From the NCBI GenBank assembly GCA_965371515.1, contig CBDUYR010000013.1, positions 1 to 59,289 on the forward strand: a DNA stretch of 59,289 bases, in the 5' to 3' direction. The position numbers and the translations under genes are program-made. Below are positions 9,721-53,477 of the stretch, in pieces. This DNA is from an uncultured bacterium (lineage in GTDB: Bacteria; Krumholzibacteriota; Krumholzibacteriia; Krumholzibacteriales; Krumholzibacteriaceae). Numbering within the stretch: position 1 is the stretch's first letter; the number at the start of each line of letters is the position of its first letter. Under the pieces are notes generated by a model that saw only the letters and a list, made by a program, of their open reading frames with translations, was not told the origin of the DNA and searched no databases.

Positions 9721-10215
9721 GTGGATGATATGAGAAGACATTTTATCAGAAGAATGGCAAACAGGTTTCTACATTTCTTGGCGCGCTTTTTACCGGGAGC
9801 AGAATCGGTGCGCCCCTTTCTCCATAAACTGCGCGGAGTAAAAATCGGCAAAGACGTATTTATTGGGGAAGAGGTCTATCTGGAGAATGAATATCCTCAT
9901 TATGTTGAAATCCACGATGAAGCTCAGATCGCATTAAGGTCAATTATCATGGCTCATGTGAGAGGTCCAGGTAAATTGATTATTTGTAAGAAGGCATGGA
10001 TTGGTCCCAATTGCGTTATCAGTGCTGTTACAGGGGAAGTTCTTACTATTGGTGAAGGCGCTGTTGTTGGAGCAGGTTCTGTTGTCACCAAGGATGTTCC
10101 ACCATATACGTTTGTTGGTGGAGTGCCTGCCAAGCCAATAGCCAGGGTGACTGTACCTCTTATTCAGAAAAATACGTATACTGCTTTTAAAGAGGGATTA
10201 TTGCCACTGGAATAG
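9721..10215 (+). CDS. Hexapeptide-repeat (left-handed beta-helix) acyltransferase
   Basis: KIGKDVFIG, AWIG and TIGEGAVVGAGSVVTKDVPP..GGVPAK. Low GC. ATG 9730 is an alternative start. Confidence 0.88.
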   Translation: MDDMRRHFIRRMANRFLHFLARFLPGAESVRPFLHKLRGVKIGKDVFIGEEVYLENEYPHYVEIHDEAQIALRSIIMAHVRGPGKLIICKKAWIGPNCVISAVTGEVLTIGEGAVVGAGSVVTKDVPPYTFVGGVPAKPIARVTVPLIQKNTYTAFKEGLLPLE

Positions 10216-10281
10216 ATTCGTTGATCCTCAGAATATAATAATTATTTATGCAAGGTAGTTGGTGTGTCGGTTATTTAAGTC

Positions 10282-11586: not shown

Positions 11587-11643
11587 ATATTGGAAGGGCG
11601 CCCCCTGTTCGGATAGTATCGATGGTCGGAAAGGATGCGGAAG

Positions 11644-11844
11644 ATGCCGATAGACTGCGAGAAACTGAAAAGCAACCTGGAATCCTGCAACTGTACCTAC
11701 TCGGGCTGCCCGAGGATGGGTAACTGCTGCGCCTGCATTCAGTATCACCTGAAGCAGAAGGAACTCCCGGCCTGCGCCTTTCCCGACGACGTCGAGAAGA
11801 CCTGGGACAGGTCATTCAAAAAGTTCATTGAGACCTGGGGTTGA
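11644..11844 (+). CDS. Small Cys-rich protein (DUF6485-like)
   Basis: Pattern CNCTY..CPR.GNCC.CI.YH...ELPAC.F...E..DRS. ATG 11635 is an alternative start. Confidence 0.75.
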   Translation: MPIDCEKLKSNLESCNCTYSGCPRMGNCCACIQYHLKQKELPACAFPDDVEKTWDRSFKKFIETWG

Positions 11845-11849
11845 GTGCG

Positions 11850-12137
11850 ATGCCCGGAAACGATGAATTGAAGGCGGCCCGTGTCAGGGTCAGCGGCGTT
11901 GTGCAGGGAGTAGGGTTCAGGTACTTCGCCCACCGCGTTGCCGTAAGCCTCGGCCTCGACGGGTACGTCCGGAACATGCGCGACGGGTCGGTAGAGGCGG
12001 TTGCCGAGGGGAACGCCGAGATGGTCGATGCCTTCGTCGAGAAGATAGGCAAAGGGCCGCCAGCTTCGAGCGTGAGAGGACTGAGGGTCAGTGAGATACG
12101 CCCTGTTGGCTACAGCGGGTTCGAAATAAGGCTCTGA
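11850..12137 (+). CDS. acyP: Acylphosphatase
   Basis: VSG.VQGVGFR, GYVRN..DG.VE and F.IR terminus. Confidence 0.92.
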   Translation: MPGNDELKAARVRVSGVVQGVGFRYFAHRVAVSLGLDGYVRNMRDGSVEAVAEGNAEMVDAFVEKIGKGPPASSVRGLRVSEIRPVGYSGFEIRL

Positions 12138-23180: not shown

Positions 23181-23187
23181 GGCCGCA

Positions 23188-23216
23188 ATGCTAACAGCAA
23201 TCGGGGTTCTGCGCAA
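23188..23216 (-). promoter_or_regulatory. Putative sigma70 promoter of the PlpD-like gene
   Basis: TTGCGC-N17-TAGCAT. Confidence 0.45.
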
Positions 23217-23240: not shown

Positions 23241-23963
23241 TCAGATGAACTTTTCCCTGTTCTGGAGGTTATAGAGCCCGTACAGGATGGCGAGCACGCT
23301 GCCGACAGCGAGCATGATGCGGTTCTGGTAGATGATCCCGGACCATGCGGCAGCCGTCATCTGGTCGGGTACCTGGAATGGATTGAGGAAGAGGTTCCAC
23401 TTGCTCGTTGACAGTGCCTCGGCTCCTATCCAGAATGCCATGCCGATGACCACCATGATCACAGCCGTCCCGTTCCCGTTTCGAATTACAGTCGAGAACA
23501 TGAACGAGAGCGCCCCGAGGAAGAAGATCGGGAACATCAACTGGTAGACCATCTCGAATATGGGAACCTGTACGAATACGACTGAGCTCAGCACAGTCAG
23601 TACTACGAGCAGCGAGAAAGTAATAAGCCATATAAGCGCCATCCTCGACAGCCATACCTTGTACCTGTAGTCAGGTATACCGAAAAGGATCTCGATCATC
23701 CTCGAGTCGACGTCGTTCTGGATGCCGAAAGCGGTAGGGTAGAAGACGAGGAGGATGCCGGGGAACATCAGTATGTAGTATACATCGGGCACGCCCGGGT
23801 TCGAATCGGACGAGAAGAACGAGATGGCTCCTGCGGCGAGGAAGAATATAAAGGAGGCCAGCAGGAAGTAGATAAATTTGTTGGCGAAGATGATCTTCAG
23901 GTTGTACGAAGATATCTTCCTGGCCGAGTAGATCATGTTGCGAACCCTGTCAAACCTGCTCAT
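23241..23963 (-). CDS. ABC-2-type membrane permease (about 6 TM)
   Basis: GGAGG RBS, six hydrophobic segments and a D.DSRMIEILF.IP coupling-helix-like motif. Overlaps the upstream gene's stop. Confidence 0.7.
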   Translation of the reverse strand: MSRFDRVRNMIYSARKISSYNLKIIFANKFIYFLLASFIFFLAAGAISFFSSDSNPGVPDVYYILMFPGILLVFYPTAFGIQNDVDSRMIEILFGIPDYRYKVWLSRMALIWLITFSLLVVLTVLSSVVFVQVPIFEMVYQLMFPIFFLGALSFMFSTVIRNGNGTAVIMVVIGMAFWIGAEALSTSKWNLFLNPFQVPDQMTAAAWSGIIYQNRIMLAVGSVLAILYGLYNLQNREKFI

Positions 23964-26900
23964 CCGCGTCACCTCCCGCGGCTTCTGCCGCCGCTTTCCG
24001 CACGCCCAGCACATCGCTCCCCGAAGATCTCAGCAGCCATAGATAGGCGTCCTCGAGCGTCGGTCTCGCCTCATGCGCGTCGGGCACTGGTTTCACGGCG
24101 GCGAGGCACCTGACCTTTATATTCGCTCCATCGCGCATGTGATGGACGACGAGATGCTCCTTTCTTAACCTCTCGAAATCGGCCGGCTCGACGCTGAATG
24201 ACCAGACCTTACCGGCGGCTGTCGCGGTCATCTTCGTCGGTTCGTCGAGATAGAGCAGCTGTCCCCTGTTCAACACCGCGACCTTGTTGCACGAGCTGTA
24301 TATGTCCTCGATGATATGTGTAGAGAAGATGACGACCCTATCCCTGCTCAGTTCGACGAGGAGGTTTCGGAACCTGATCCGCTCGCGAGGGTCGAGCCCC
24401 GCGGTCGGCTCGTCGACGACGAGGATCCTCGGCAGGTGCAGGAGTATCTGCGCTATCCCGACCCGCTGCTTCATCCCGCCGGAAAATGCACCTATCTTCC
24501 TGTCGGCGTGCTCTTCGATATGCACCGCCTCGAGGACGTAATCGACCATATCGCGGCGTTTTTTCCTGTCGGCGAGACCCTTGAGGATCGCCTGGTAGTC
24601 GAGAAACTCCCTTGCCGTCAAGTTCTCGTAAGTCCCGAACTCCTGCGGCAGGTAGCCGATCAGCCCCTGAAGCTCCTCGCGCTTCTCCGCCGTGTCTATC
24701 CCGTTGATGTATACCTTGCCGTAGCTCTGGTCGAGGATGCCGCAGATAACACGCATAAGTGTCGTTTTGCCCGCGCCGTTCGGACCGAGCAGGCCGAACA
24801 TTCCGTTGCCGATCTCGAGCGACACGCGATCGAGCGCCTTGAAGGGCTGCTTGCGTTTTCCGATGACAGGAATCATGAGCACGAAGCGGTAGAGGGCGCG
24901 GCGGATGCCGGAAAGGCGTCCTTCGATCCTCGCGATGTTGATCTTGTCACGATGGAGCCTGCGCGAGGTGGAGAAGACAGCGATAGCTGTGAACCAGAGG
25001 ACCGCAATGAAGATCACCGCGGCGAGGTTGTCCCATTTCCTGTAGAAGACGGTGAGGTTGACGAGAGGGAAGAGCCATATGAATATCCTCGACAGCCCGC
25101 GCAGCAGGCGCCCCGCTAAGCCCGCAAGCCCTGACAGCCGCTCGCTCCAGCCGTCCCAGACGAACATCAGGAAGAAGAAGAGCAGGTGTGAGAGCACGAA
25201 GGCCCAGAAGAAGGAGGAGAGGTAGTAGTATGCGAAGTAGATAATGAAGCCGAGCACGGGGAGCTGCCAGAGCAGGTCTCCCGCGTCGCTGGTGCGTGTA
25301 TCTCCGCGACTCTCCCTGATACGCCCGCCCTTCTTCCATTCACGGACGAACTTCGACGGCTGGTCGTAGATCTTGACGAGGTTGCGCACCGTGATCGTAA
25401 TCGTGCTGTCACTGTCGATGACCTTTGCCGATGCCTTCCTCAGGCTCGCCAGGATGAACCAGGTCACCGCGGGGATGACCATTATAAGCGTTGCTGTCAG
25501 TGCCGATCTCCAGATCAGCGAATCGATCTTTTCCCAGACGAGCCATATACCGAGAACCGCTGCAAGTCCCTGAGCGAGTTTTATTCTCCAGTCGAGCCCT
25601 CTCAGCCAGCCGAGCGCCGAATCGAGCCCTGAATAAACGACAGGTATGAATACGAGCGTGAAGAGTGTGCTCACCGTCAGGCCGCCTATGACGGTAATGG
25701 CGAAGGGCGCACCGATCACTGAGACCTCTTCTTCCTTTCCCATGGCAAGCGGGATCATCGCTGCGATCGTCGTGATCGCTGTGATCAGGATCGGCCTGAC
25801 CCTCGCCTGCCCCGCCATCATAAGCGCTCTCGTTGAGCGGTAGCCCCTGCGCCTCAGTATCAGCGAGTAGTCGATCAGTATGATCCCGTTGTTGACGACG
25901 ACGCCGAGAAGTATGAGGAATCCGGTCAGCGTGTAGACATCTACGATCGAGGTGCCCGTTAAGATCAGGAGCCAGAGAGAACCTATGGCGGCAAGCGGGA
26001 TGGTGAACATCATCACTACAGGTGTCGTGAGTGATTCGAAGACCGATGCGAGGATCATGTAGATCAGGATGAATGCTGCCAGGATGAGGAACTTGAAATC
26101 GCCAATACCGCTGTCGTCCTCGACGATCTCCACCGCCATTCCCTGCGGGACGATGAGCCCGGCGATCAGATCTTCTATCTCTATCTCGGCTGCTTCGAGC
26201 AGCTTCCTCGAATCGTTGATCCCGTCGATAAAGGAATAGGTTATCGAGATCTGCTTCTCCTGGTTGATCCGCCTTATCCTCGTCATGCCGCGCGAGTAGA
26301 CCATGTCGCTGATTTCCTCGAGCTCGATGACCGCGCCGGAAGGCGACTGGAGGGACATCTCCCGCAGGTCGTCGGTATGGCGCTCCTCGACACCGGCGCT
26401 CCTGATGACGATCTCGTATTCGTCGGTCCCATCCTTGAACACCTGCCCGGTGGACCGCTCAGGCTGGAAGGAGCTAAGCTCCCTGCTGACCGACTGCAGG
26501 GTAAGGTCGTTCCAGGTGAGCAGCGGCATATCGAACATCAGCTGTATCTCGGGGCTGCCCGGGATGACGTCGTAATTTGCCGAGGCGGTCGATGCGAGGT
26601 CGTCAATGTAATCCGCGAGGTTGGAGGCGAATCGCGACATCGCTTCATAGTCGTTTCCCTTTACGACTATGCTTTTCTGCTGCGAACCGAATCCGAAGAA
26701 GCGTCCCATCGCGCCGCCCATCCCTCCGCCGCGTCTTCCCCGGTACCTTGTGCTGGATGTGGGCTCGTCGAAAGATATATCACCCGTTCTGATAGGGGCT
26801 ACCCGCTGCTTCGCGTCGGACTTGACCTGGCCGAGGTTGCGCCTGTCTATATCGCTGTACCCATCCTTCAGCTTTACCGTGATCCGCGCGTCCTCTTCGT

Positions 26901-28692
26901 AGATGTGGCTGATGATGTCCTGCTTCTCGGGGATCCCGTCGAGTCTCTCCTCGATGTCGCGGACGACGGCATCGGTCGATTCGAGTGTAGAGCCGCGCGG
27001 CATGACGAGGAAGATATCGAACGATCCCGTCTCCTCAATATTTGAAGAGCCTGCACTGAGGCCGACGCAGAGTATGATGCTGACGAAGAAGATGACGAGC
27101 GCCCCGACCGTTGTCCTCGCAGGGTATCTCATCCCCGTCTTGAGCAGGACGCGGTATATCTCCATCATCCTGCCGCCCGAGGACTGGACCGGGCTGTAGT
27201 CGGTTCTTTTCTCTTTAGAGAGGAAGTAATGGCTGACCATCGGGACGAGCAGAAGGGCGGCTGCGAGGGAGACGATCAGCGTAGAGACGATTGACACTCC
27301 GATGTGCTTTCCGAGACTCTGAACTATGAAATTCGAGGAGAAGACGAAGGGAAGGAAGACCGTTATCGTGGTCGCCGTCGCGGCAGTTATTGAGCGCCAG
27401 ACCTCGCTCACTCCCTGGATTACGGCTCTGTCGGCGCGGATACCCTTCGATGCGAGCCTGTATATGTTCTCCAGGACGACGACTCCGTTGTCGAGGAGCA
27501 TTCCGATCGCAAGTGCGATCCCGATGAGGGTGAGGGAGTTTATCGATATCCCCGCCGCGTAGAAGAAGTTCATCGCGATGTAAACCGAAATGGGAATCGA
27601 CAGGGCGATCACGAATACGAGCCGGAGGTTCCTGAGAAAGAACCACAGTATGACGATAGCGAGCAGTCCGCCGATGAGGGCGAGCCTGACAATGAGATTT
27701 ATATTGCCGCGTATCGACTCGGCGCCGTCGTACTGGACGACGATCTCCATCTCCTGGCCACGCATCTCGCGATTCAGTCGCTCGACCATCTCGAGGGCCC
27801 TGTCGGAGACCTCGATCATGTTGACCATCTGGTCCTTCATCAGGTTCATCGAGACTGTTTCCATGCCGTTTACACGGGTGATGTTCTCCTGCTTTTTCAC
27901 GCCGAAGTAGATCTCGGCGATGTCGCCTAGCAGGACGGGCCCGTCTGGATGCACGACGATCTTCTCGAGGTCGGCGATGTCGAGATATTCAGTCACAACA
28001 TTGACGAAGTATTTCCTGTCCCTTTCGACCGCCTGACCGACGAAGGTATTGGAAGCGCCGTTCTGAGAGATAAGAGCGGAGATCCTCGACGCTGTGAGCC
28101 CGTAGGCCTCGATAGCCTCGTCGTGGAGGACGATGTCGACCGACTTTTCCCGGCCGCCCGTAACGCTTACCTCGGCAATCCCCTCTATGCTCTCGAACTT
28201 CCTTCTGATCTTATCGTCTACTACCCGGCGGACGCGGTCGATGCCGCCCGTTCCCCGGATCTCGAGGTCCATCAGATTGTCAGAGATCCTCTGTGTGTCG
28301 AACTTGATGACCCTTACGAAGTAGTCCTCGGGGATCGAGGATCTGATCTCGGCGATCTTCTCCTCGAGTTTGAGGTAGGCGTACTTGATTTCTACGCCCT
28401 TCTTGTATTCGATCGTGATACTGCCCGACCCGCGGCCTATGTCTGATTCGATACGCTCGATCCCCTCGAGGGTGCCGGCCGCCTCCTCGATCGGGATAAT
28501 CGCCTCTTTCTCGACGCGGACCGGATCGGCGGGCCTCATTGACCGGACCATTACAAAGAGGTAGGGAAGCTCGATGTCTGGGATCAGCTCCACGGAGAGG
28601 CGCCTCTGCGATATGATTCCGAGCATCACAAGCCCGATGAAGAGCATGCTGATAAAAGTCTTGCGGCGGATTATGAAGTTGCCAGCGCTCAT
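23950..28692 (-). CDS. RND (AcrB-like) permease fused to an ABC ATPase domain
   Basis: The first ~1025 aa are RND (GMLLDNGVVVLENI, FESL..P, GVVVNNGI, RVRPILIT). The C-terminal NBD has GPNGAGKT, LPQ, FSGGMKQ, ILVVDEP and STH. It is one uninterrupted 1580-aa ORF. Confidence 0.92.
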   Translation of the reverse strand: MSAGNFIIRRKTFISMLFIGLVMLGIISQRRLSVELIPDIELPYLFVMVRSMRPADPVRVEKEAIIPIEEAAGTLEGIERIESDIGRGSGSITIEYKKGVEIKYAYLKLEEKIAEIRSSIPEDYFVRVIKFDTQRISDNLMDLEIRGTGGIDRVRRVVDDKIRRKFESIEGIAEVSVTGGREKSVDIVLHDEAIEAYGLTASRISALISQNGASNTFVGQAVERDRKYFVNVVTEYLDIADLEKIVVHPDGPVLLGDIAEIYFGVKKQENITRVNGMETVSMNLMKDQMVNMIEVSDRALEMVERLNREMRGQEMEIVVQYDGAESIRGNINLIVRLALIGGLLAIVILWFFLRNLRLVFVIALSIPISVYIAMNFFYAAGISINSLTLIGIALAIGMLLDNGVVVLENIYRLASKGIRADRAVIQGVSEVWRSITAATATTITVFLPFVFSSNFIVQSLGKHIGVSIVSTLIVSLAAALLLVPMVSHYFLSKEKRTDYSPVQSSGGRMMEIYRVLLKTGMRYPARTTVGALVIFFVSIILCVGLSAGSSNIEETGSFDIFLVMPRGSTLESTDAVVRDIEERLDGIPEKQDIISHIYEEDARITVKLKDGYSDIDRRNLGQVKSDAKQRVAPIRTGDISFDEPTSSTRYRGRRGGGMGGAMGRFFGFGSQQKSIVVKGNDYEAMSRFASNLADYIDDLASTASANYDVIPGSPEIQLMFDMPLLTWNDLTLQSVSRELSSFQPERSTGQVFKDGTDEYEIVIRSAGVEERHTDDLREMSLQSPSGAVIELEEISDMVYSRGMTRIRRINQEKQISITYSFIDGINDSRKLLEAAEIEIEDLIAGLIVPQGMAVEIVEDDSGIGDFKFLILAAFILIYMILASVFESLTTPVVMMFTIPLAAIGSLWLLILTGTSIVDVYTLTGFLILLGVVVNNGIILIDYSLILRRRGYRSTRALMMAGQARVRPILITAITTIAAMIPLAMGKEEEVSVIGAPFAITVIGGLTVSTLFTLVFIPVVYSGLDSALGWLRGLDWRIKLAQGLAAVLGIWLVWEKIDSLIWRSALTATLIMVIPAVTWFILASLRKASAKVIDSDSTITITVRNLVKIYDQPSKFVREWKKGGRIRESRGDTRTSDAGDLLWQLPVLGFIIYFAYYYLSSFFWAFVLSHLLFFFLMFVWDGWSERLSGLAGLAGRLLRGLSRIFIWLFPLVNLTVFYRKWDNLAAVIFIAVLWFTAIAVFSTSRRLHRDKINIARIEGRLSGIRRALYRFVLMIPVIGKRKQPFKALDRVSLEIGNGMFGLLGPNGAGKTTLMRVICGILDQSYGKVYINGIDTAEKREELQGLIGYLPQEFGTYENLTAREFLDYQAILKGLADRKKRRDMVDYVLEAVHIEEHADRKIGAFSGGMKQRVGIAQILLHLPRILVVDEPTAGLDPRERIRFRNLLVELSRDRVVIFSTHIIEDIYSSCNKVAVLNRGQLLYLDEPTKMTATAAGKVWSFSVEPADFERLRKEHLVVHHMRDGANIKVRCLAAVKPVPDAHEARPTLEDAYLWLLRSSGSDVLGVRKAAAEAAGGDADEQV

Positions 28693-31600
28693 CGGCTCCG
28701 ATCCAGGACGGAATAGACACAGGGTATTACTATGAGGGTGAGTATCGTCGACGTAACCAGTCCGCCGATAACCGCCAGGGCCATCGGAGAGCGGAGCGAG
28801 ACTCCCTCGCCGAATCCCAGGGTGAGGGGGAGGAGCGCGAGGATCGTCGTGGCGCTTGTCATCACGATAGGCCTGATCCTCATCCTGCCGGCGGCGACGA
28901 TAGCCTCCATCTTGGCCATGCCGTCGCGCTTCAGACGATTGATCGCATCGATCAGGATGATCGAATCGTTCACCGCTATGCCTACGAGCATGATCATCCC
29001 GATATAGGCCATGACGCTCAGGGGTCGGCCGAGCGCGAAGAAGATCAGTACGGCGCCTACCCCGGCCAGCGGAATCGTCAGAAGGATCGCGAACGGATGT
29101 ATGAGCGATTCGAACTGCGAGGCGAGGACCATGTATACCAGGATCACCGATAGTATCAGGGCAAATCGCAGGTCGCGGAATTCCTCACGCCTCTTGGCCT
29201 CCTCGCCTGCGATCGCGAGCCGGTAGTCGGGCGGAAGGTCTATCGCGGCGAGGGTGCCGTTTATCTCGCGTATCGCGTGGTCGAACGGCCTGCCCTCACG
29301 CTTGTGCGCGGTGACGATTGCGGCCCTCATCTGCCCGCGCCTGTTTATCTCGCGCGGCGCAGTTCCGATCTCGAGGGTCGCCAGTTCGTCGAGGCGGTAT
29401 TTCCTGCCGCCGGAATCGACGTAGATCCTGTCGAGGTCACCGAGTCCCACATCGGGAAGCATTACTGTGATGTCGGTCTTCTCTCCGCCGCGGTCCCATT
29501 CGCCCGCGTTCCGGCCGGTCAGTCTCGATTCGAGGGCTCCGGTCACCTCGCTGAGCTGTACCTGGAGCATACCCGCCCTGAGGCGGTCGACGACGACGCT
29601 GACCTCGGGACGACCGTGCTCGAGGGATGTCTCGACATTGTACAGGTCCTCGATTCCCGAGAGCTTCTCCCTGACCTGATCGGCAAGAAGGGTAAGAGTT
29701 TCGAGGTCGTCCCCCTTGATCTCGATCACCACGGGAGCAGAATCCGCCCCCAGGATGGAGCGAAGGGCCGTCTGGTCCTGCACGAGCCTTGATTCGACGC
29801 CCGGTATCGTCGCGAGCGCCGCTCCGAGGCCGGACATGATCTCTCCGGAGCTGCGGCTGTGCCCTTCAGCGAACTTGATCTTCACGACAGCGGTGTTTTC
29901 GTCCTGGAAGACGGAAGATTCGTCGCTGCCTATTCCGGTCACCGGCCCGGCCGTGCTGTACAGAGTCTCGATCGCGTCGCCGAAGATTCCCTTCATCAGC
30001 TCCTCGAGTCCTCTGACCGTTCCGTCGGTTCTTGTCAGGTCGGAGCCTTCGGGCAGAGTGAGGTATATCGAGTATTCATCGGCATCCGCCTCGGGTATGA
30101 ACTCGCTGCCCACTATGGGAAGGATGAGGACGGCCAGCGCCACGAGGGCGGCAGCCCCGATGATGACAGCCCAGCGTCTCTCGAGCGCCTTCGTCAGAAT
30201 GACGCCGTACCTTTCGAAGCGGACCGGCTGTGCAGCGGTCGCGGCCTTGCCGCTCCCGAGGAACCTGCTGGCCAGCATGGGGATTATCAGTATCGCGACT
30301 GCAAGGGAGGAGAGAAGGGCGAATGCGACGGTCCACGCCTGGTCCTTGAAGAGCTCCCCGGCCGCGCCGTGCAGGTAGACTATCGGGAGGAAAACGACGA
30401 TCGTAGTTATCGTCGAAGCCGTGATCGCGCCGCTGACCTGTGCCGTGCCGGTCGCGGCGGCCTCCCTGACGTTCATGCCCGATTCGATATTCCGGACTAT
30501 GTTCTCGACGACGACGATGGCGTTGTCGACGAGCATGCCGGCGCCGAGGGCGAGGCCTCCGAGCGTCATGATGTTGAGCGACAGTCCCTTGAAGTACATC
30601 AGGTTGAAGGTCGCTACGATCGAGACCGGTATCGATATGCTGATGATAGCAGTGGTCCCGATGCGCCTGAGAAAGACGAAGAGTATGAGTATTGCGAGGA
30701 ATATTCCGAAGAGTGCCGTCTGCCTCACCTCACCGATAGACGAGTTGATGAACTGTCCCTGGTCCTGGATGACGACGAGGTCATATCCGGGCAGCGCCTT
30801 CTCGATACGGTCGAGAGCTGCGATGAGATTATCGCTCGCCTCGACGGTATTGAACCGCATCTCCTTGTATATCGAGAGCCCGAGGCACCTCGTGCCGTTG
30901 ATCCTTACGATGTTCTCCGGATCCCTGTTGCTGAGCGAAACTTCGGCCACGTCGTGCAGGTATACGGGTGCTTTCTCCGTCGATCCGTCATCGGTCTGCA
31001 TGCGCTCCGCGGAGAGCTGCTGCCCCTCGCCGGGCTCCTTCCAGGCGAGGATGATCTGCCTGATATCCTCGATCGATTCCATGACGGAGACGCCCTTGAT
31101 CAGGTAAGAGATGCCCATCTCGGTGACTGTGCCGCCCGAAGCCTCGACGTTGTAGTTTCTTATCGTCGCAGCGATGTCGTCGACCGAGAGGCCGTAAGCT
31201 TCCAGTGTGTAGGAATCTGTCTGTACGATCACTTCCTTGGTCTCGCCTCCCGAGATTTCTACCCCGGCGATCCCATCGATCCTCACAAGTTCGTTTCGTA
31301 TGTAGTTCTCGGCGATCCTGCGCGGGACGTCCATATCGATAACGTCGGGATTGACGAGGGCAACCATCATGACTGGATCGGAGTTAGGATTGTGCTGTGT
31401 GATCGTGATCTCGAGGTCGTCGTATCTCTGCCCGAAGTCGGCCGCGGCCTTCTGGAGGTTGAGGAAGGCCTCGTCCATATCCATGTCCCAGCCGTACTCG
31501 ACTGTGATACGTGCAGCGCCGACCCTGATCATAGAGGAGACCCCGGTGATTCCCTTCTGTGTGAAGATCAGGTTCTCCATATTGTCGACGTACTGCTTTT

Positions 31601-31781
31601 CCATCTCCTCGGGAGGGCGTTCGCCCGCCTCTATCTCGATGAAGAGTCGGGGATTGTTCAGGTCGGGGAAGAGGTCTATTCCGAGGCGCTGGAACGAGAT
31701 CCAGCCGAGCAGGATCACGCCCAGGACGATCATTGTCACGGTAACGGGATGGTTAACGGAAAAGTCCGCTATCTTCCTCAT
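28689..31781 (-). CDS. RND efflux permease (AcrB/AcrD/AcrF family)
   Basis: GMLVDNAIVVVENI, QFESL.HP, GIAVND, RIRPIVMT and MALAVIGGL. TGATG overlap with the adaptor gene. Confidence 0.93.
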   Translation of the reverse strand: MRKIADFSVNHPVTVTMIVLGVILLGWISFQRLGIDLFPDLNNPRLFIEIEAGERPPEEMEKQYVDNMENLIFTQKGITGVSSMIRVGAARITVEYGWDMDMDEAFLNLQKAAADFGQRYDDLEITITQHNPNSDPVMMVALVNPDVIDMDVPRRIAENYIRNELVRIDGIAGVEISGGETKEVIVQTDSYTLEAYGLSVDDIAATIRNYNVEASGGTVTEMGISYLIKGVSVMESIEDIRQIILAWKEPGEGQQLSAERMQTDDGSTEKAPVYLHDVAEVSLSNRDPENIVRINGTRCLGLSIYKEMRFNTVEASDNLIAALDRIEKALPGYDLVVIQDQGQFINSSIGEVRQTALFGIFLAILILFVFLRRIGTTAIISISIPVSIVATFNLMYFKGLSLNIMTLGGLALGAGMLVDNAIVVVENIVRNIESGMNVREAAATGTAQVSGAITASTITTIVVFLPIVYLHGAAGELFKDQAWTVAFALLSSLAVAILIIPMLASRFLGSGKAATAAQPVRFERYGVILTKALERRWAVIIGAAALVALAVLILPIVGSEFIPEADADEYSIYLTLPEGSDLTRTDGTVRGLEELMKGIFGDAIETLYSTAGPVTGIGSDESSVFQDENTAVVKIKFAEGHSRSSGEIMSGLGAALATIPGVESRLVQDQTALRSILGADSAPVVIEIKGDDLETLTLLADQVREKLSGIEDLYNVETSLEHGRPEVSVVVDRLRAGMLQVQLSEVTGALESRLTGRNAGEWDRGGEKTDITVMLPDVGLGDLDRIYVDSGGRKYRLDELATLEIGTAPREINRRGQMRAAIVTAHKREGRPFDHAIREINGTLAAIDLPPDYRLAIAGEEAKRREEFRDLRFALILSVILVYMVLASQFESLIHPFAILLTIPLAGVGAVLIFFALGRPLSVMAYIGMIMLVGIAVNDSIILIDAINRLKRDGMAKMEAIVAAGRMRIRPIVMTSATTILALLPLTLGFGEGVSLRSPMALAVIGGLVTSTILTLIVIPCVYSVLDRSR

Positions 31782-32830
31782 CACCTCACGACCTTTACCT
31801 TCGACCTGTTCCTCAGCGTCTCGAAACCCCTGATTACGAGACGGTCATTGACCTCCAGGCCGTCGAGTACTTCGATCCAGCCGGGGTTCTCGAGGCCCGT
31901 CGTAATGATACGTTCCTGCGCGGCGCCTTTCTGGACGATGAAGACCGTCTTGCCGCGCTGCTTGACCTGGATCACGTCCTTGGGTATGACGATCGTCGAG
32001 TCGCTGCCTGCGACTACGATCTCGGCCTTGACGAACATGCCCGGACGCAGGATCAGATCGGGATTGCCGATCTCGATCATAGTCTTGAACGACCTCGAAG
32101 CAGGATCGAGTGCGGGGGAGACCTGCGTCACAACACCCGAAAGCGTGTCGTCGGGGAGGGTGTAATTCATTATACGTACGTTCTGGCCTGCGTCGGCGCG
32201 GCCGAGTTCCTTGCCGGGGAGGCTCACCTCGAGCTGGAGGCGGCTGTACTCTTTCACGCCGAGCAGTTCGGCTCCCTGTGCCACCTTGACCCCCCGCGTG
32301 TAGTAGGGGAGGCTCGTGATGACGCCTTTAAAGGGTGCGGTGATCTGAAGGTTCTCGAGGCGGAACTGGGCGTTCTCGTAGTCGTACTTCGAGTCGATGT
32401 AGGAGCGCTCGGCCTGGCTCAGCTCCAGTCGCGTGACTCCGCCTTTGTCGTAGAGAGATTTCTGCTGCTCGTATTCGAGACGCGCAGTCTCGAGGGTAAG
32501 TTTCTTCGCATCGATCCTGATGTTGTTTTCTTCCTCGGGATTCACCAGGTGGATTATCCTGGTGCCCTTTGCGACGATTTCGCCCAGAGCGAACGGTTTG
32601 CCCGTTGAGGGATTTTTAAGCAGGATGTACTCGCCGCCTGTCTCGGCGTTGATCGTAACCTCCTTGGAGGCCTTTACCGTACCGGTCGCTGTCACGAACT
32701 CCTCGATCGAGCCGGGAGCGATCTCCTCGACCGAAACGGGAACGGCGACCTCGACGTCTGTTCCCTCGTCCCCGCCTCCACAGGAAGCGAAAGTCAGCAG
32801 GGCGATTGATAACAGTGTGATTTTCTTCAC
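31781..32830 (-). CDS. RND periplasmic adaptor (membrane fusion protein), lipoprotein
   Basis: GTG start after AAGGAG, lipobox FASC, and motifs I.APF.G, LRPGMF, IP and GL...D.LV..G. Confidence 0.9.
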   Translation of the reverse strand: MKKITLLSIALLTFASCGGGDEGTDVEVAVPVSVEEIAPGSIEEFVTATGTVKASKEVTINAETGGEYILLKNPSTGKPFALGEIVAKGTRIIHLVNPEEENNIRIDAKKLTLETARLEYEQQKSLYDKGGVTRLELSQAERSYIDSKYDYENAQFRLENLQITAPFKGVITSLPYYTRGVKVAQGAELLGVKEYSRLQLEVSLPGKELGRADAGQNVRIMNYTLPDDTLSGVVTQVSPALDPASRSFKTMIEIGNPDLILRPGMFVKAEIVVAGSDSTIVIPKDVIQVKQRGKTVFIVQKGAAQERIITTGLENPGWIEVLDGLEVNDRLVIRGFETLRNRSKVKVVR

Positions 32831-32857
32831 TTCCCACTCCTTGCTCAATGATATATA

Positions 32858-34762
32858 TCAGTTCTTTGAATAATTCAGCGGAACGACCTTTGCGTAACCT
32901 ATCTGGGAAAGATCGAGCAGCCGCTGTTTTGTCGATGCTGCCTCTTCCGGCGTCCGATACTCTCCAACGTAGACTCTGTACCATGTCCGACCGTTTACTT
33001 CGGTCGCTAATATGGTAGCGGCGAAACCGTTCTTCTCCAGATAATCGCTCTCGCTGCCCGCCCGCCCGATTTCCGTGAAAGACGCTACATGAACCGTATA
33101 ATACGAGACCTCGTAAGCAGGAGCAGCCGTGGAGGGCTTCCCGACGGGAACCGGTCCGGCCACAATCGCTCTCTCCATACCGTCCGATTCGTATTCTGCG
33201 GGCGCCGCGTCGTCCTGCATACGGTCCTGATCGAATCCGGCGGCACTGCTCTCACCTTCCTCGATGCCAGAGGTTGATATCGTGATGACGGGGCGGTCGT
33301 TTTCGAAATCCCACAATGATTGTATCTTCAGGTCGAGCAGTTGCAGCCTGTAGTTGATAAGGTCATTGATCTCGCTTAGTCTCGCGTTGGAGAGGGACTG
33401 TCGGTAATCGCCAAGCAGCTGACTCGTCAGGTCCCCGTTCTGGTATTTCTCGAGGTTGATCTCGTACGTCTTCTCCGCGCTCTCGACACGTCTGCTGGCG
33501 AGCTCGATCTGGCGGACGAGGTTGTCGAGCGCGCGGCACGACTCGCGGATATCCATAGTTATTTCGTATCTGTCTTCCTCGAGAGTAAGTTTCTGGCTCT
33601 CGAGACTGATCTCGCTGGCGAGTATCGTATTCTTTTTCTGTCCCCAGTCCCAGATCGGTATGTCGAATGAAATGCTGACAAGCTGCTCATCCGTCCGCTT
33701 CTCGTAGATGTTGTTAAAATCAGGATTTGTCCCTGACGATCCCCAGGAGAGATGCAGATCGCCCCTGAATTCGTTGACCGTTCCAGCGCGGACTATTGCG
33801 TTGTAAGCGTTGGCGATTGTGATCTCCTGCTGGCGGAGTTCCATCCTCGTTTCGAGCCCGTGCCTGACGGCGAATTCCATGTTGATGCCGACTGGATTGA
33901 ATCCGATGTCGGTATCGATGTCGATATCGTCGTCGAGGGGGAGGCCGATGAGGTATTTGAAGCGGTCGAAGGCGTTGGCGAGCGAGACGGTCGTGTTGTT
34001 ATAGTTCGATTCGCTCGCAAGCATATCGGTCTCGGCCTGGGTGAGGTCGTCGAGCTTCCCGATTCCCGCATCGTACTTGTTTTTCATGATCCGGTGATTC
34101 TCGCGGTCGGACTCCATTGCGTCACGGTTGATCTCCAGCCTCATCTTGTCTGCGTAAAGATAGTAGAACTCCCTCATCACCCTTCTCTCGATGTTCAGCT
34201 TCGTGATCACGAAGCTGAGCTCACTGCTTTCGAAATCGAGCTCGAGCTCGCTGAGGTCCATCTTCATCCTGTTGTATGTGAACAGGGGCTGGTCGAACTG
34301 GAGATAGAGTGCATTACGGTAGTTCTGAGTCGATTCGTCGTTGACCTCGCTGTAGGTGTCGTGCCAGGAGAGGCGGTCGTTGAGCGAGAGCACGCCGTCG
34401 GTCCACTTGATCGGCTGCCTGATCGAGATCTGTCCGGCTATATCCTTTGATTCGTACGTGTACCAGGTGGAGAAGAACTCGTCGAACCTGTTGGTGTTCT
34501 GATACGAGATCGGTCCGAGGGTCAACCCGAACTGCGTCTTCAGACTCGCCTCCTCTGCCCTGAGCCTTGCCTCGCTCGCGTCCAGGCGGAATTTCGTATG
34601 CCTGATATCGGGGCTGTTCTCCATCGCGATGGAAAGGGCGTCGTTGAGCGACAGTATGTGCTGCGCCGACACACCGGACGGCACGGCGGCCAGCAGCAGA
34701 GGGGCAAGCAGTACTGCGGCGAACCTCCTCGCCGCTCCGGAGATCCTCGATTCGGATACCAT
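32858..34762 (-). CDS. TolC-family outer membrane factor fused to a C-terminal SPOR domain
   Basis: Signal peptide and TolC motifs LSL.DAL..A.ENSP, QPLF, IPIWDWG and Y..G. After an acidic linker come YTVHVASF...A......L...GF and WYRVYVG.Y....EA. Confidence 0.85.
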   Translation of the reverse strand: MVSESRISGAARRFAAVLLAPLLLAAVPSGVSAQHILSLNDALSIAMENSPDIRHTKFRLDASEARLRAEEASLKTQFGLTLGPISYQNTNRFDEFFSTWYTYESKDIAGQISIRQPIKWTDGVLSLNDRLSWHDTYSEVNDESTQNYRNALYLQFDQPLFTYNRMKMDLSELELDFESSELSFVITKLNIERRVMREFYYLYADKMRLEINRDAMESDRENHRIMKNKYDAGIGKLDDLTQAETDMLASESNYNNTTVSLANAFDRFKYLIGLPLDDDIDIDTDIGFNPVGINMEFAVRHGLETRMELRQQEITIANAYNAIVRAGTVNEFRGDLHLSWGSSGTNPDFNNIYEKRTDEQLVSISFDIPIWDWGQKKNTILASEISLESQKLTLEEDRYEITMDIRESCRALDNLVRQIELASRRVESAEKTYEINLEKYQNGDLTSQLLGDYRQSLSNARLSEINDLINYRLQLLDLKIQSLWDFENDRPVITISTSGIEEGESSAAGFDQDRMQDDAAPAEYESDGMERAIVAGPVPVGKPSTAAPAYEVSYYTVHVASFTEIGRAGSESDYLEKNGFAATILATEVNGRTWYRVYVGEYRTPEEAASTKQRLLDLSQIGYAKVVPLNYSKN

Positions 34763-34784
34763 CGTAATCTTTCCTTTCTTGAAT

Positions 34785-37700
34785 CTAGCGCCCGACCCAC
34801 TTGACCGCGTCGGCGATCACGAACCGTGCCTCTGACTCGTTGGTAATCTCGATCTTTGCCTCACCCTGAGAGATGTAGTACGAGCCGAGGTAGTTCCATC
34901 CGTCTTCGGCGCTGTTGAGATCGAGTTCGGTCTCTTCGACGCCGTCATCGTGATATATGAGAAAGTGGACCTTTCCGTAATCGGCATCATGGCCTCCGCC
35001 TCTGTGCCTTCGCCAGGGCGAGACGATCCTGCTCGCGTGATAGTAGACGTCGAAGTGCCCGCTCTTCTCGAGTGTGGCCGTGAACGCGGCTGTATGGTCG
35101 CCGCTGCCGCTCGCTATGAAGTGGGCCGAGCGGATCTGGGCGCCGTAGAATTTCGTGTCGATCGTCGGCTGCCACCTGCTCGACTCGCTGCCCCCGTCCC
35201 AGAAACGCATCCCGACATATTTCACATCTTTCTCGCTCGCGCCGCGTGGGATGAGCCTTTTAAGCAGGCTCTTCGATGTGCCCGACGACGATGAGAATCC
35301 GGGATCCTCGTTGTCTACGACCGTCTCTCCCTTGACAGTGAGCTCTACCGGTTTGTCCAGGACCCTTTCGCCGTCAAAAGGTGTGATTTTCTTTTTCTCT
35401 TCAAGTTCCTCGGGAAGATCGATATCCATGAGCACCGGCAGGTTGCGGGAGACCAGTGTGTTGACCTGGACGGATGACGGCTGGAATCCCAGGACGAAAC
35501 CGAGTTCCCTCGTCTCGCCGGCCTTGACCGGAACGTACCGGCTGTAATCCTTGCCCATCGTCATCGTGGCGGTCATCATCCGTCTCATGCGTCCCCCGCC
35601 GCCGCGCATGTTTACGTCCATCTGCTTGAAAGTAAATACAATAAGCCCGTCGGTATCCTCGTTATTGGTCACACTTAGACGGACCTGGAACTTCTCGCGT
35701 TCTTCGTCGATGAACTTGAATATCTCCACCGGGGACATCGTAAATCCGGGGACGGAGATGCCGTCATACCAGCCCTCCGTGATCGCTGAAAGGTCGATGT
35801 TGAACTCATCATTCAGGGAGGAAACAAAGACATCACCGGGCACATTGTCGTACTCGTATTCCTCGAACAGTCCCTTGATAATCTTGTCGAGTTCGTCCCG
35901 GCTCGCGGCGCTCTCCAGCATCCTCAGGAGGAAACTTCCCTTAGATTTGAGGGCGTAGTGAGACATCTTGCGGTATTCGGGGTCGAGGATGAGGTCACGA
36001 AGACTCATCTCGGCGAGCTTGAGGTTGACCCTTTCATCGAGCGTCATCCCCCAGCGCATCCTGCTCCAGCTGAACGTGTTGTCCTCGAGTCTCGACGCGT
36101 ACCATGACTCGAGGGCCATCCCGAGCCAGGGCATCTCCTTCGAATCGATCCCGCCTCGGAAAGCGAGCATGTTGGGGAATACGTTATACGAAGGCGACCT
36201 CTGGAACGGATCATCAGAGTCCCAGTCCGATCTTCCGAATCGCCCGGTAAGTGTCGCGTTCACGAATACCGCGAACATCCCCGCCTGGTTCTCCATCTCC
36301 GAGATATCCTCGTTGCTCCGTTCCTGCTGTCGCTTGGTCCTTCGCTTCATCCTTCTGAAATCAGCGCCACGAATGGTGATGCCCCGTTCGGGGATGAAGA
36401 CCATCTCCGGCTGGACCGTCTCCTGGTAGACCGACCAGGCGTGATAGAACGCCGAGTAATGGACCGGGACCTCGACTATAGAGAATCTCGGGAAGGGATA
36501 TTCGAGGTTGAGATTATTTTCATATGTCTGCCTGAGGTCCCTGATCATAGCCTCGAGAGTGTCCCCGACCTCGGTCATGTACTCCGACCAGTAATCGTTC
36601 CCCGGGCCGAAATAGATATTGTATTCGACCGAGTCGACGACAGCTGTATGTCTCTCGAACCCGGCTATCGTCAGGGAGATCGCAGGGAGGCGGTTTTCGG
36701 GCCTGAAGCTGAATTTTCCCGGGGAGTCATTCGATGACGCACCCTGTGAGACTGCCGTCAGGCCGGGAGTGGTTGTGACATCGAGTGAGAAATCTACGAA
36801 ATCGTGCCTGCGCTCGAGCGGCCTCGAGGGGATGAAGCCGGGCCCGGCGGCGGGGTACCACATCGTCTCCGGGGTGAGCAGGACATATCCGGGATGGATA
36901 TACGAGTATCTCCGCCCCATAACGAAGAACATGAGCCTGTTCATGCCGGTGAGTGTCCCTACATCTATATCGGTATAGAGAGCATCTTCGTTAATAATCC
37001 CTCTCCACTGTATACTGAACGAGTCCTCAGCGCCGGCGGCGAGCGGGCTGCCGGGAACGACCATCAGTATATGCTCATCCCGTTCGTACTTCAGCGTTCC
37101 TGATGCTCCCTCTACTTCACGGACGGTGAGTCCCGGATTGAGGTTGAATATATATGATGAAAGGGGGGCGCCGGTCTCGTTCCGCACTGTTATCTCCGCC
37201 GTGGCGTCTATCAGTCCGCCTTCGTGTTTGAGATCGATGTGGCAGGAGAGGGGCGTCGCGACATCTCTCGCGGAGGCCGCTTCAGATGCTGCAAGTATCC
37301 TCTCGCGCTGGCGAGCCATATTCCCGTCCCTGCCTGTGTAGACTACGATAAGCACTATGGCGAGAGCCGCGCAGGCGAATCCGGCGATCCGCGCAAATCC
37401 CGTCATCACCCTCGATTGCGGGAGCCTGCGTATCATGACGATCGTGAGGGAAATGAACGAAAGGCCGAAGAGAAGATAGATCAAACGCTGCACGAGCATA
37501 TGCGTGATGTCGGCGAAGCCTGTGAACTGCGAATAGACCAGAGGGACGTTGAAGGCGATATAGTCGAAGACGTTGTGAATCCTTGGCCCGAGATAGAAGA
37601 GTGTCATCCCGATATATCCCAGCAGGACGATGAATGTCACAGCCTGGTTACGGATCGTGACCATCATCAGGAAAGCGAATCCCAGGATGAAGATCAGGGT

Positions 37701-38168
37701 CGGGATGCTGATAACGACGGGATATATGAGGTAGGCGATTCCGGCGAATGTCGTATCTGCGAAGAAGACATTGAAGACCAGGCCTATCAGCAGGATCACG
37801 ATATTGAGGAGGAGGAACATCGTCATGATCCCGACCGTCTTGCCGAGGACGTAATCGGTGTTCGTCATCGAACGCATGTATACGACCTCGGTCGTATCGA
37901 GCTTCTTGTCCCTCTTGAGGAAATCTGAGGCGAGGAAGACTGCGATGATCGCCTGCGCCACATTGAGAAAGAGGATGTTCATGTAAGGGATCGTTGTCGG
38001 TACGCCCTGTAAGGCCCACGGTGCGTGTGTGACGTTGGAGAGGGATACGAAATCGAAGAAACCGATGATCGCGACGGAGAGTATGGAGAATATCCGGAAG
38101 AACCAGCTCCTCCACAGTGTCTTCGCCTCGAACCTGGCCACTGTGAGGATATTGTAGATTGATATCAT
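34785..38168 (-). CDS. ABC-2 permease with a large periplasmic M1-aminopeptidase-like region and a C-terminal golvesin/xanthan-lyase CBD-like domain
   Basis: About 7 N-terminal TM (ARFE.K.L.RSWF, RD...DT.EV.Y.R.M.N..Y..GK). Then F.LNPGL, WYP and YPF.R...VEVP, and a C-terminal VVDNED.GF...GWNYLGSY...VIADAVKW. Confidence 0.75.
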   Translation of the reverse strand: MISIYNILTVARFEAKTLWRSWFFRIFSILSVAIIGFFDFVSLSNVTHAPWALQGVPTTIPYMNILFLNVAQAIIAVFLASDFLKRDKKLDTTEVVYMRSMTNTDYVLGKTVGIMTMFLLLNIVILLIGLVFNVFFADTTFAGIAYLIYPVVISIPTLIFILGFAFLMMVTIRNQAVTFIVLLGYIGMTLFYLGPRIHNVFDYIAFNVPLVYSQFTGFADITHMLVQRLIYLLFGLSFISLTIVMIRRLPQSRVMTGFARIAGFACAALAIVLIVVYTGRDGNMARQRERILAASEAASARDVATPLSCHIDLKHEGGLIDATAEITVRNETGAPLSSYIFNLNPGLTVREVEGASGTLKYERDEHILMVVPGSPLAAGAEDSFSIQWRGIINEDALYTDIDVGTLTGMNRLMFFVMGRRYSYIHPGYVLLTPETMWYPAAGPGFIPSRPLERRHDFVDFSLDVTTTPGLTAVSQGASSNDSPGKFSFRPENRLPAISLTIAGFERHTAVVDSVEYNIYFGPGNDYWSEYMTEVGDTLEAMIRDLRQTYENNLNLEYPFPRFSIVEVPVHYSAFYHAWSVYQETVQPEMVFIPERGITIRGADFRRMKRRTKRQQERSNEDISEMENQAGMFAVFVNATLTGRFGRSDWDSDDPFQRSPSYNVFPNMLAFRGGIDSKEMPWLGMALESWYASRLEDNTFSWSRMRWGMTLDERVNLKLAEMSLRDLILDPEYRKMSHYALKSKGSFLLRMLESAASRDELDKIIKGLFEEYEYDNVPGDVFVSSLNDEFNIDLSAITEGWYDGISVPGFTMSPVEIFKFIDEEREKFQVRLSVTNNEDTDGLIVFTFKQMDVNMRGGGGRMRRMMTATMTMGKDYSRYVPVKAGETRELGFVLGFQPSSVQVNTLVSRNLPVLMDIDLPEELEEKKKITPFDGERVLDKPVELTVKGETVVDNEDPGFSSSSGTSKSLLKRLIPRGASEKDVKYVGMRFWDGGSESSRWQPTIDTKFYGAQIRSAHFIASGSGDHTAAFTATLEKSGHFDVYYHASRIVSPWRRHRGGGHDADYGKVHFLIYHDDGVEETELDLNSAEDGWNYLGSYYISQGEAKIEITNESEARFVIADAVKWVGR

Positions 38169-38219
38169 TGCATCAGCCTTTCATCGGTCGGTGGGGATCG
38201 CAACGCCTCCGGGGCGTTC

Positions 38220-39101
38220 TCAGTTCTCGGACTGGTTCTCCATGAAATAGACGTAAGCGTGCTCGAGATTCGGCTCTATTTCTTCACCGGGCCATCTGCC
38301 CGTATCGTCGGCCACGACGTGGACCTCCCAGCCGTCGTCTGCGGGGATGGTCGATATCACCGGGAAGGTCGTCTTTATCTCCTCGAGTTCGCTGTCGAGC
38401 GCGCGTATTTTCCACGACCGCCCGCGGGCCTTCTCGATAAGCTCGTCGGGGGAGCCGCGGAAAACGACGCGGCCGCGGTCGAGCAACGCCATGTTATGGC
38501 AGGTGCTCGATATGTCGCCGACGATATGAGTCGAGAGGATGATGGCGATATCCTTCTGGCCCATGTCTGCGAGCAGGTTTCTGAATCTGATCCGCTCCTC
38601 GGGATCGAGGCCGGTCGTCGGTTCGTCGACGACTATGATCTTCGGCTCTCCGATCAGAGCCTGGGCGATCCCCAGCCTGCGTTTCATTCCCCCGGAGAGC
38701 TTGTTGGCGAGCCGGTCGCGCACGTCGTAGAGGCCGACCTGTTCAAGCATCTCGCCGACGGCCTTTGTCCGCTTCTTCGTTTCCCTCAGGCCGGCGAGGC
38801 GCGTCACGTAATCGAGGAATTCCCATGTAGTGAGTTTGGAGAAGAACCTGAACTCCTGCGGAAGATATCCGAGCATCGACCTGATCTCGCGCCGGTTCTT
38901 CTGCAGGTCGAGATCGTTCACCCTGACGCTGCCGCCCGTCGGCTTCATCAGCGTGACGAGGATCCTCATCAGGGTCGTCTTTCCCGCGCCGTTCGGCCCG
39001 AGCAGGCCGAACATCCCGCTGCCTATATCGAGGTCCACTCCTGTGAGGGCTGCCGTGCCGCCCTTGTATGTCATGCTCAATCCTTTGACCGATATGTTCA
39101 T
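38220..39101 (-). CDS. ABC transporter ATP-binding protein (ABC-2/DrrA-like)
   Basis: GPNGAGKT, LSGGMK, IIVVDEP and STH. Confidence 0.95.
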   Translation of the reverse strand: MNISVKGLSMTYKGGTAALTGVDLDIGSGMFGLLGPNGAGKTTLMRILVTLMKPTGGSVRVNDLDLQKNRREIRSMLGYLPQEFRFFSKLTTWEFLDYVTRLAGLRETKKRTKAVGEMLEQVGLYDVRDRLANKLSGGMKRRLGIAQALIGEPKIIVVDEPTTGLDPEERIRFRNLLADMGQKDIAIILSTHIVGDISSTCHNMALLDRGRVVFRGSPDELIEKARGRSWKIRALDSELEEIKTTFPVISTIPADDGWEVHVVADDTGRWPGEEIEPNLEHAYVYFMENQSEN

Positions 39102-39134
39102 CCTCGCCCCTTCCGGCGTCGTAGATATCCTTCG

Positions 39135-39187
39135 TACGCCTTCGACCTCATATAGTTTCAGTCAATCGCCAGCGCGTTTCGGTTACA
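39135..39187 (-). promoter_or_regulatory. Tandem ECF-sigma-type promoters of the ABC-RND operon
   Basis: TGTAAC-N17-TGAC (39187-39161) immediately followed by TGAAAC-N16-CGTA (39160-39135). Confidence 0.6.

Positions 39188-50210: not shown

Positions 50211-53477
<3,267 letters not shown>

Follow-up and report, generated by a model that had tools for sequence, protein, structure and literature searches.

Resistance-nodulation-division (RND) permeases and ATP-binding cassette (ABC) exporters are regarded as two different ways of powering TolC-type channels; the evidence that they can cooperate, which comes from DrrABC with MmpL7, is so far genetic rather than physical. Here we describe an operon from a 59,289-nucleotide stretch of DNA of an uncultured member of the Krumholzibacteriaceae (assembly GCA_965371515.1, contig CBDUYR010000013.1; the whole stretch is referred to below as the window). 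As judged from its sequence, the operon encodes a complete RND-adaptor-TolC set together with an ABC set of two ATPases and two permeases, joined by a single polypeptide in which an RND permease is fused to an ATPase. An initial annotation, made from the DNA letters, had recognized two nucleotide-binding domains (NBDs), two membrane permeases, and an RND tripartite set connected by the fusion; Pfam and homologue searches found all of these parts, but the annotation had missed a membrane insert in the second NBD, a stripped M1 aminopeptidase-like domain, and asparagines at the positions of AcrB D408 and K940. In the most far-reaching form of our preferred reading, to which we assign a probability of about one-half, the products would represent a new class of envelope machine: one complex with ATP- and proton-driven motors in series, in which an ABC flippase or extractor would be joined to an RND trimer through a membrane-embedded ATPase and the dead aminopeptidase domain would serve as an exchangeable cargo receptor feeding TolC.

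The nearest analogue and functional precedent appears to be the export of mycobacterial phthiocerol dimycocerosate (PDIM) by DrrABC, MmpL7, and LppX, in which a type V ABC exporter with two different permeases is clustered with an RND-superfamily protein and both are needed for export of one cargo; DrrABC and MmpL7 mutants have identical phenotypes, and the accessible sections of the two papers give no direct evidence of contact (PMC11539658, PMC8427324). The best NCBIfam model for the first ATPase of our operon is drrA, below its cut-off. In the mycobacterial system, as far as those sections describe it, the proteins are separate, MmpL7 is devoid of a proton relay, and neither an adaptor nor TolC takes part, whereas here there is a covalent link, AcrB-type RNDs with an aspartate in transmembrane helix 4 (TM4), and two differing ATPases. 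MdtABC-TolC resembles the operon in its single adaptor, two RND paralogues, one outer membrane factor (OMF), and full RND architecture; MdtB, however, has Asp-Asp in TM4, Lys in TM10, and no ABC part, while the first RND of the operon (RND1) has Asp-Asn and Asn, respectively. The rhizobial proteins NodIJ, NolFGHI, and NodT link an ABC-2 exporter, an RND, and an OMF to the export of one lipid-bearing signal; these are separate genes and proteins, for which we know of no fusion or common complex. YbhFSR-YbhG combines two ATPase domains, two different permeases, and an adaptor in one operon, but, in the parts of the sources available, its ATPase domains are fused to each other rather than to an RND, and there is no RND (PMC8277102, PMC13739795).

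A literature search, with subscription journals and TCDB outside its reach, gave no description of an RND-ABC fusion or of the operon, in keeping with the initial statement that no characterized example was known; in a term search of the accessible text of a review of ABC nanomachines, the whole word "RND" did not occur (PMC10094684). The accompanying premise, that these families work as separate machines, overlooked the DrrABC-MmpL7 precedent. All parts are of known folds, but the search yielded no described system in which both engines are joined. With both engines in one chain across several phyla, hand-off from the inner membrane to an RND could be studied in a single purifiable complex.

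An RND-ATPase fusion maintained across phyla

The linking polypeptide consists of the second RND (RND2) followed by the second ATPase domain (NBD2). From each of two public marine-sediment runs, a contig spans the whole fusion with zero differing letters; these runs may be the source of this DNA and so are not independent of it. A search with residues 1030 to 1330 gave 2,835 matches among 7,999 scored candidates, a figure in which weak matches may be ATPase-only because the query includes the start of the ATPase core; both ACR_tran and ABC_tran were present in all of the best 120 matches. Cultured isolates and unrelated assemblies carry the same fusion at 44-90% identity, the nearest named records being from Krumholzibacteriota (89% in the linker). 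Carriers bear the source names Krumholzibacteriota, KSB1, Bacteroidota, Latescibacterota, Zixibacteria, Calditrichaeota, and one Chlorobiota-labelled bin. A linker profile recovered 132 clusters at 50% identity, 19 of them full length, and the signature, Walker B, and switch motifs are kept in all 19. No stand-alone inserted ATPase was found among 32 shorter matches, whose starts scatter inside the fusion as those of fragments do.

Locus counts, here and below, refer to the best 80 of 154 confirmed matches and only to loci long enough to tell. The fusion is a single frame in 62 of the 66 loci that span it. The few split frames could suggest an assembly or annotation artefact, but recurrence in unrelated assemblies and cultured isolates, and single contigs spanning the junction, lead us to regard that explanation, including the misassembly contemplated by the initial annotation, as refuted. 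The frame is split near the start of the linker in two genomes of the genus Bacteroides (L129:12808-17518, from G486, and G472:C89); G472 also has a stop in the large permease, which suggests decay.

Among 112 full-length homologues (of 121 proteins, those exceeding 1,500 residues), the Walker A Lys, Q-loop Gln, signature SGGM, Walker B Asp-Glu, D-loop, and switch His are invariant, as are the TM4 Asp, Glu-Asn, and TM11 Arg/Thr of the RND part. Because the ATPase motifs and the TM4 Asp are kept in 112/112, both engines look maintained.

Organization and inheritance of the operon

Positions 23241-39101 of the window hold seven co-directional minus-strand open reading frames (ORFs). These and their principal domains are as follows.

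38220..39101, minus strand: NBD1, 293 aa, a free ABC ATPase subunit, DrrA/GldA-like (Pfam ABC_tran, E 2.9e-31)
34785..38168, minus strand: large permease, 1127 aa, with an ABC-2-type membrane domain, a seventh helix, and a large predicted periplasmic part
35634..37292, minus strand: M1-aminopeptidase fold in the large permease (aa ~293-845), a predicted pseudo-peptidase
34797..35186, minus strand: Golvesin_C/xanthan-lyase-type beta-sandwich at the C-terminus of the large permease (Pfam, E 7.6e-13)
32858..34762, minus strand: TolC-family OMF, 634 aa (Pfam OEP and SPOR)
32918-33106, minus strand: SPOR domain at the C-terminus of the OMF (Pfam SPOR)
31781..32848, minus strand: periplasmic adaptor (membrane fusion protein) of RND type, ~348 aa (Pfam HlyD_D23; TIGR01730 RND_mfp above cut-off)
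28689..31781, minus strand: RND1, 1030 aa, a complete AcrB-family permease (Pfam ACR_tran, 5-1027)
23950..28692, minus strand: RND2::NBD2 fusion, 1580 aa, with ACR_tran (5-1021) and ABC_tran (1288-1431) in one ORF
25366..25395, minus strand: first beta-strand of NBD2 with the A-loop aromatic Y1109, ahead of the insert (from residue alignment to solved ATPases)
24847..25362, minus strand: membrane insert within NBD2, ~170-210 aa, with four predicted membrane helices
24025..24843, minus strand: NBD2 core, with Walker A, Q-loop, signature, Walker B Glu, D-loop, and H-switch
23241..23963, minus strand: small ABC-2-type permease, 240 aa, with 6 predicted helices

As initially annotated, the last four genes are linked by overlaps: TGATG between adaptor and RND1 (taking the ATG at 31781 as the RND1 start), ATGA between RND1 and RND2, and 14 bp between RND2 and the small permease (taking the ATG at 23963). 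The remaining gaps, between the first genes of the cluster, are 51, 22, and 9 bp; the first start codon lies at 39101, not at the previously given end of 39187. The adaptor probably starts at a GTG at 32827, and a lipobox-like FASC in its sequence makes it a probable lipoprotein. A promoter and terminator scan found no minus-strand promoter-like site, with counts at or near the level of shuffled sequence.

Gene order is conserved across several phyla, which bears out the expectation that the fusion and its synteny would be found in other genomes; by sequence comparison, the cluster is intact from sediment bacteria to some gut Bacteroides. Upstream of the fusion lie RND1 in 62/65 loci, the adaptor in 58/61, the OMF in 52/54, and the large permease in 50/51; the small permease lies downstream in 72/73. 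NBD1 falls beyond the counted flanks; where a longer region extends far enough, it heads the cluster. Three loci (L079, L083, and L089) depart from this arrangement, and a search of their genomes for RND1 and the two permeases located the RND1 orthologue and both of the permeases at other sites in each (3/3). At one locus (L020:4711-8585, in G027), ~3.9 kb of unrelated genes stand between the large permease and the OMF, and the remaining order is kept.

Of 151 genomes in the genus of Bacteroides sp. 519, an identical set of 12 carries the linker and the large and small permeases; of 301 genomes in its phylum, an identical set of 2 does so, one of which is the centre genome. The linker was present in 15 of 301 genomes of its family. 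Among 41 relatives of the window's genome, 23 gave a strong match to the linker, 26 to the large permease, and 23 to the small permease, the mismatches being three genomes that are 80-84% complete, a contig end (G002), and G026. In G026, both flanks are kept, and between them fragments of NBD1 and of the small permease directly adjoin each other (L154, G026:C5:10000-28000, 8721-9355); on this sequence, that genome has lost the operon as one block deletion. The counts, taken among kin, do not have the force of a statistical test. Genomes of this order commonly carry the system, which is rare across Bacteroidota, and its flanking genes differ between loci. We consider it very probable that the seven genes act as one functional unit, a part of the initial interpretation that has good genetic support.

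Two neighbours were rejected as further components. A patatin-POTRA-Omp85 gene, presumably PlpD-like (20985-23216, same strand, 24 bp downstream), is co-directional with the operon only in close kin; a similar gene lies head-on in some Bacteroides loci. An upstream acyl-CoA ligase gene adjoins the cluster only within the order.

The RND pair, adaptor, and OMF

Like HAE1 permeases, RND1 and RND2 are 12-helix RND proteins with two large periplasmic loops, by ACR_tran match and hydropathy. The cognate adaptor and OMF are identified by an RND_mfp score above cut-off, by OEP, and by adjacency in relatives. The solved structure nearest to RND1 is MdtB (9lyq; E 4.7e-94). An assignment to the MdtB and MdtC equivalogs was rejected, as RND1 scored 369/1584 and 393/1774 against the respective NCBIfam models, below the cut-offs, and RND2 scored lower.

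The proton relay of AcrB consists of D407, D408, K940, R971, and T978, according to the part of the source available (PMC8277102). Both RNDs keep the equivalents of D407, R971, and T978. RND pumps in the same genome that have no ABC partner share the Asp-Asn/Asn pattern, so the loss of D408 and K940 was rejected as a specific sign that ATP has taken over.

In one alternative account, an ATP-driven RND pump, the ABC module would move no cargo across the membrane but would drive or gate the RND trimer, or move the periplasmic domain of the large permease, by mechanotransmission; the cargo would be drawn from the periplasm. There is precedent in NosFY, which moves NosD, and in MacB, which moves its own periplasmic domain. 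The asparagines at the D408 and K940 equivalents would suit such a pump, as would the insert that ties the ATPase to the membrane beside the RND and the fact that JGI names certain of the large permeases as permeases for multi-copper-enzyme maturation (NosY-type). Structural matches of NBD2 include NosF near the top, but its Z of 24.8 lies within the 23-27 range of ATPases and is not clearly ahead of the others. MmpL7 is described in the accessible text as having no proton relay, and a scaffold role has been proposed for it (PMC8427324). Yet the TM4 Asp, Glu-Asn, and TM11 Arg and Thr are invariant, and the asparagine pattern, being shared with the ABC-free pumps, did not arise with the fusion; we consider this account rather unlikely.

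The closest local relatives of RND1 and RND2 lie in an ABC-free adaptor-RND-RND cassette (G000:C36:12092-19479) and show the Asp-Asn/Asn pattern as well. In a tree made by a quick method, and with long branches, RND1 groups with the first RND of that cassette; the best local match of RND2 is the second. From this kinship, the probable origin of the system is the acquisition of an ABC module by a cassette of this kind. The same kinship would also suit modules that are tethered but independent, as they would be if an ordinary two-RND pump were merely co-located by the fusion with an ABC module that handles another substrate, or with an NBD2 that serves as a nucleotide sensor. This is improbable in our view: no unfused form was found among the shorter matches and clusters, the parts are kept when scattered (3/3) and were lost together in G026, and the catalytic Glu and His are invariant, unlike those of a sensor.

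The initial annotation had treated TolC-SPOR as a component of the system. Intact OMFs of relatives are ~430-520 aa long, mostly 490-510, and have no SPOR domain, so SPOR was dropped as a general part. The SPOR part of the window's OMF is 63% like G000:C4:16108-16386 in the same genome, which suggests a recent domain gain.

Two ATPases and a membrane insert

As in type V (ABC-2) exporters, the operon encodes two ATPase domains with Walker A and B, Q-loop, signature, and H-switch. All catalytic motifs of NBD1 are intact (motifs were compared in 23 loci), and its closest paralogue in the genome is NBD2, at 42%. In NBD2, the predicted insert comes directly behind the first strand, ITITVRNLVKIY (1098-1109). 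This strand matches the first one of NBD1, and its last residue, the A-loop aromatic Y1109, is Tyr or Phe in 81/81. In the predicted model (predicted local distance difference test score 81; predicted template modelling score [pTM] 0.62), the alignments of solved ATPases begin here, with their residue 1-3 on this strand, and 231 of 235 residues of LptB (4p33) align to NBD2 at 2.5 Å.

Between this strand and the next lie four hydrophobic helices (~170-210 residues), and two further helices link RND helix 12 to the strand, giving the fusion a total of 18 predicted membrane helices. Basic residues cluster on the loops expected inside, which implies that the ATPase stays cytoplasmic. An ATPase with four membrane helices in its first hairpin is unusual. 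No look-alike of the insert was found by sequence or Atlas search, a result that shows neither novelty nor absence.

Two permeases and a predicted pseudo-peptidase

The initial identification of a giant and a small ABC-2 permease was upheld through homologues. Neither of the window's own copies gave an ABC-2 Pfam match; a homologue of the large permease (L135) matches ABC2_membrane_2 above cut-off, and 16 of 81 homologues of the small permease match ABC2_membrane_3 at E up to 0.1 (best 3.3e-7). Atlas look-alikes of the small permease are ABC-2 clusters, and it has a weak collinear match to the N-terminus of the large one (E 0.01, probability 4%). By these relatives, rather than by the window copies, the two would be six-helix ABC-2 permeases.

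The AlphaFold model of the large permease has a pTM of 0.85. Hydropathy and loop charges indicate that a seventh helix would put the rest of the protein in the periplasm. In the model, residues 293-845 match M1 (gluzincin) aminopeptidases such as ERAP1, IRAP, tricorn factor F3, and PepN (Foldseek E 1e-17; VIA-align Z 21-22 over ~380-470 residues, root mean square deviation 4-6 Å), with which they share a beta-sandwich and a thermolysin-like domain. Unlike these enzymes, the domain is fused to an ABC-2 permease and a Golvesin_C end, and it has neither the HExxH-18x-E zinc site with GxMEN nor the catalytic Tyr. An HExxH string occurs in one of 121 large-permease homologues, at residue 312 of that protein, outside the site; in a comparison with PDB 3cia, other residues stand in place of both the third zinc Glu and the catalytic Tyr, and the Tyr column is Lys or Arg in 93/110. 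In a profile alignment with 4 local M1 peptidases, only the C-terminal end was reliable, and the GxMEN and HExxH positions were mapped by eye. The acidic residues E583, E594, and E687 are conserved, with no metal site. The domain is thus predicted to be a catalytically inactive pseudo-peptidase. ABC-2 permeases fused to active M1 peptidases exist; a pseudo-peptidase on an ABC permease is unusual.

The Golvesin_C end matches only the C-terminal domain of PDB 6f2p (last ~116 residues; E 2.4e-8) and is the likely reason that Bacteroides copies are named "xanthan lyase" in databases, a name that we rejected because the catalytic domains have no match.

An orphan large permease of 28% identity (G000:C1:7979-11341) lies inside a pyrG-kdsA-kdsD-acyltransferase-lptC-lptB-rpoN run in this genus (gene names read by eye from the sequences). 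Orphans also occur at L144, L146, L147, L150, L152, and L153, and beside lptC-lptB in G009; other relatives have them at unrelated places. Intact copies of the orphan diverge faster than their neighbours (58-64% versus 74-96%). Large permeases without their own ATPase would fit, weakly, an exchangeable specificity subunit.

The likely Bacteroides orthologue

Protein clusters of the operon carry the source names B. thetaiotaomicron, B. faecis, B. caecimuris, and others. Genes of the Bacteroides locus L129 run in the order YjbH, lipoprotein, NBD1, large permease, OMF, adaptor, RND1, RND2. The accessible text of two papers assigns BT0293 to YjbH, BT0297 to an outer membrane SilC, and BT0299 to an RND (PMC10434189, PMC4380924), and this order fits L129; BT0295-0302, mapped by gene order only, is therefore probably this operon. 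In cultured gut Bacteroides, the cluster is filed as an ordinary RND pump and a "xanthan lyase," and it is testable now. In G486 the fusion is split into two frames, so the state of the gene in a laboratory strain matters before phenotypes are read.

In the part of a preprint available, BT0297-0300 is treated as a plain RND pump and counted as bile induced (bioRxiv 10.1101/2023.07.26.550638). Supplement rows give log2 changes in bile of -0.5 (BT0295), 1.1, 2.1, 2.8, 1.2, and 2.0 (BT0302), with BT0298 alone under an adjusted p of 0.05; the all-genes table, in the form seen, has no BT0300 or BT0301 row, and the printed "BT0300" value equals that of BT0302 (PMC11078008). In these published rows, BT0295, the likely NBD1, is expressed above the rest and is not induced, which would suit independent modules. 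No fitness data for BT0295-0302 occur in 9 supplements of PMC8121099; other datasets may include them.

The bile response bears on a further alternative, that of a peptide-defence pump, in which the dead peptidase domain, lying at the outer face of the inner membrane, would catch peptides that are antimicrobial or damaged, the ABC module would strip them off in the manner of LanFEG, and RND-TolC would expel them. LanFEG strips peptides from their membrane target, and LanF has an E-loop in place of a Q-loop. The M1 fold with its conserved E583, E594, and E687 and no metal site could suit peptide binding; patchy spread and block loss resemble those of accessory defence genes, and the fast-diverging orphan permeases and the modest bile induction of the likely orthologue point the same way. 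Only BT0298, however, passed the adjusted p threshold, and the literature search yielded no resistance phenotype. Both ATPases have a Q-loop, and they score 135 and 143 against the lantibiotic-protection model TIGR03740 (cut-off 310), so a LanFEG-type lantibiotic immunity ABC was rejected. We regard the defence pump as unlikely.

A proposed two-step mechanism

ABC ATPases work as dimers, each bound to two permeases. The chain that holds NBD2 includes no ABC permease, but two ABC-2 permeases and a paralogous ATPase are encoded in the same cluster, so the simplest assembly would be NBD1 and NBD2 on the large and small permeases. We think it likely that all seven products form one physical complex, with folds and topology of the parts as predicted. 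In the first step of the preferred reading, a type V ABC heterodimer, made up of the small permease with the fused NBD2 and the large permease with NBD1, would spend ATP on removing an amphipathic cargo from the inner membrane, by flopping or by extraction, and the stripped M1 domain and beta-sandwich would bind this cargo but leave it uncut. Our guess is a peptide-bearing lipid or glycopeptide. In the second step, the cargo would move to the neighbouring RND trimer and be pushed through the adaptor and TolC, a single adaptor serving both modules. The trimer is probably mixed RND1/RND2, as in MdtB/MdtC, and by analogy with MdtBC, a trimer with one RND2 would carry one ABC module; the six extra helices would fix it beside the trimer. 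We hold the odds of this ABC-to-RND hand-off to be even.

Several observations weigh against this proposal. The AcrB D408 and K940 positions are Asn in both RNDs, leaving the relay incomplete, and proton pumping is not assured. The complex and the hand-off are inferred from sequence. The identity of the cargo is a guess, as no conserved neighbour names it; in the flanks compared, the cluster has no conserved neighbour that is a biosynthetic or substrate gene. The fusion frame is broken in 4/66 loci and in G486, most Bacteroides are without the system, and co-inheritance was seen among kin that are not independent. The SPOR domain appears private to this genome. Deletion of BT0297-0300 gave, in the accessible part of the report, at most a mild biofilm effect (bioRxiv 10.1101/2023.07.26.550638).

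Other features of the window

Positions 10001-12000 have a G+C content of 0.45, versus ~0.57, around a 434-aa ORF (10282-11586) with no Pfam match, and were possibly acquired. A tricorn-protease-like gene followed by a C1-like peptidase gene lies at 50211-54946, a DegP-like protease is encoded at 12970-14409, and a rhomboid at 5571-6257.

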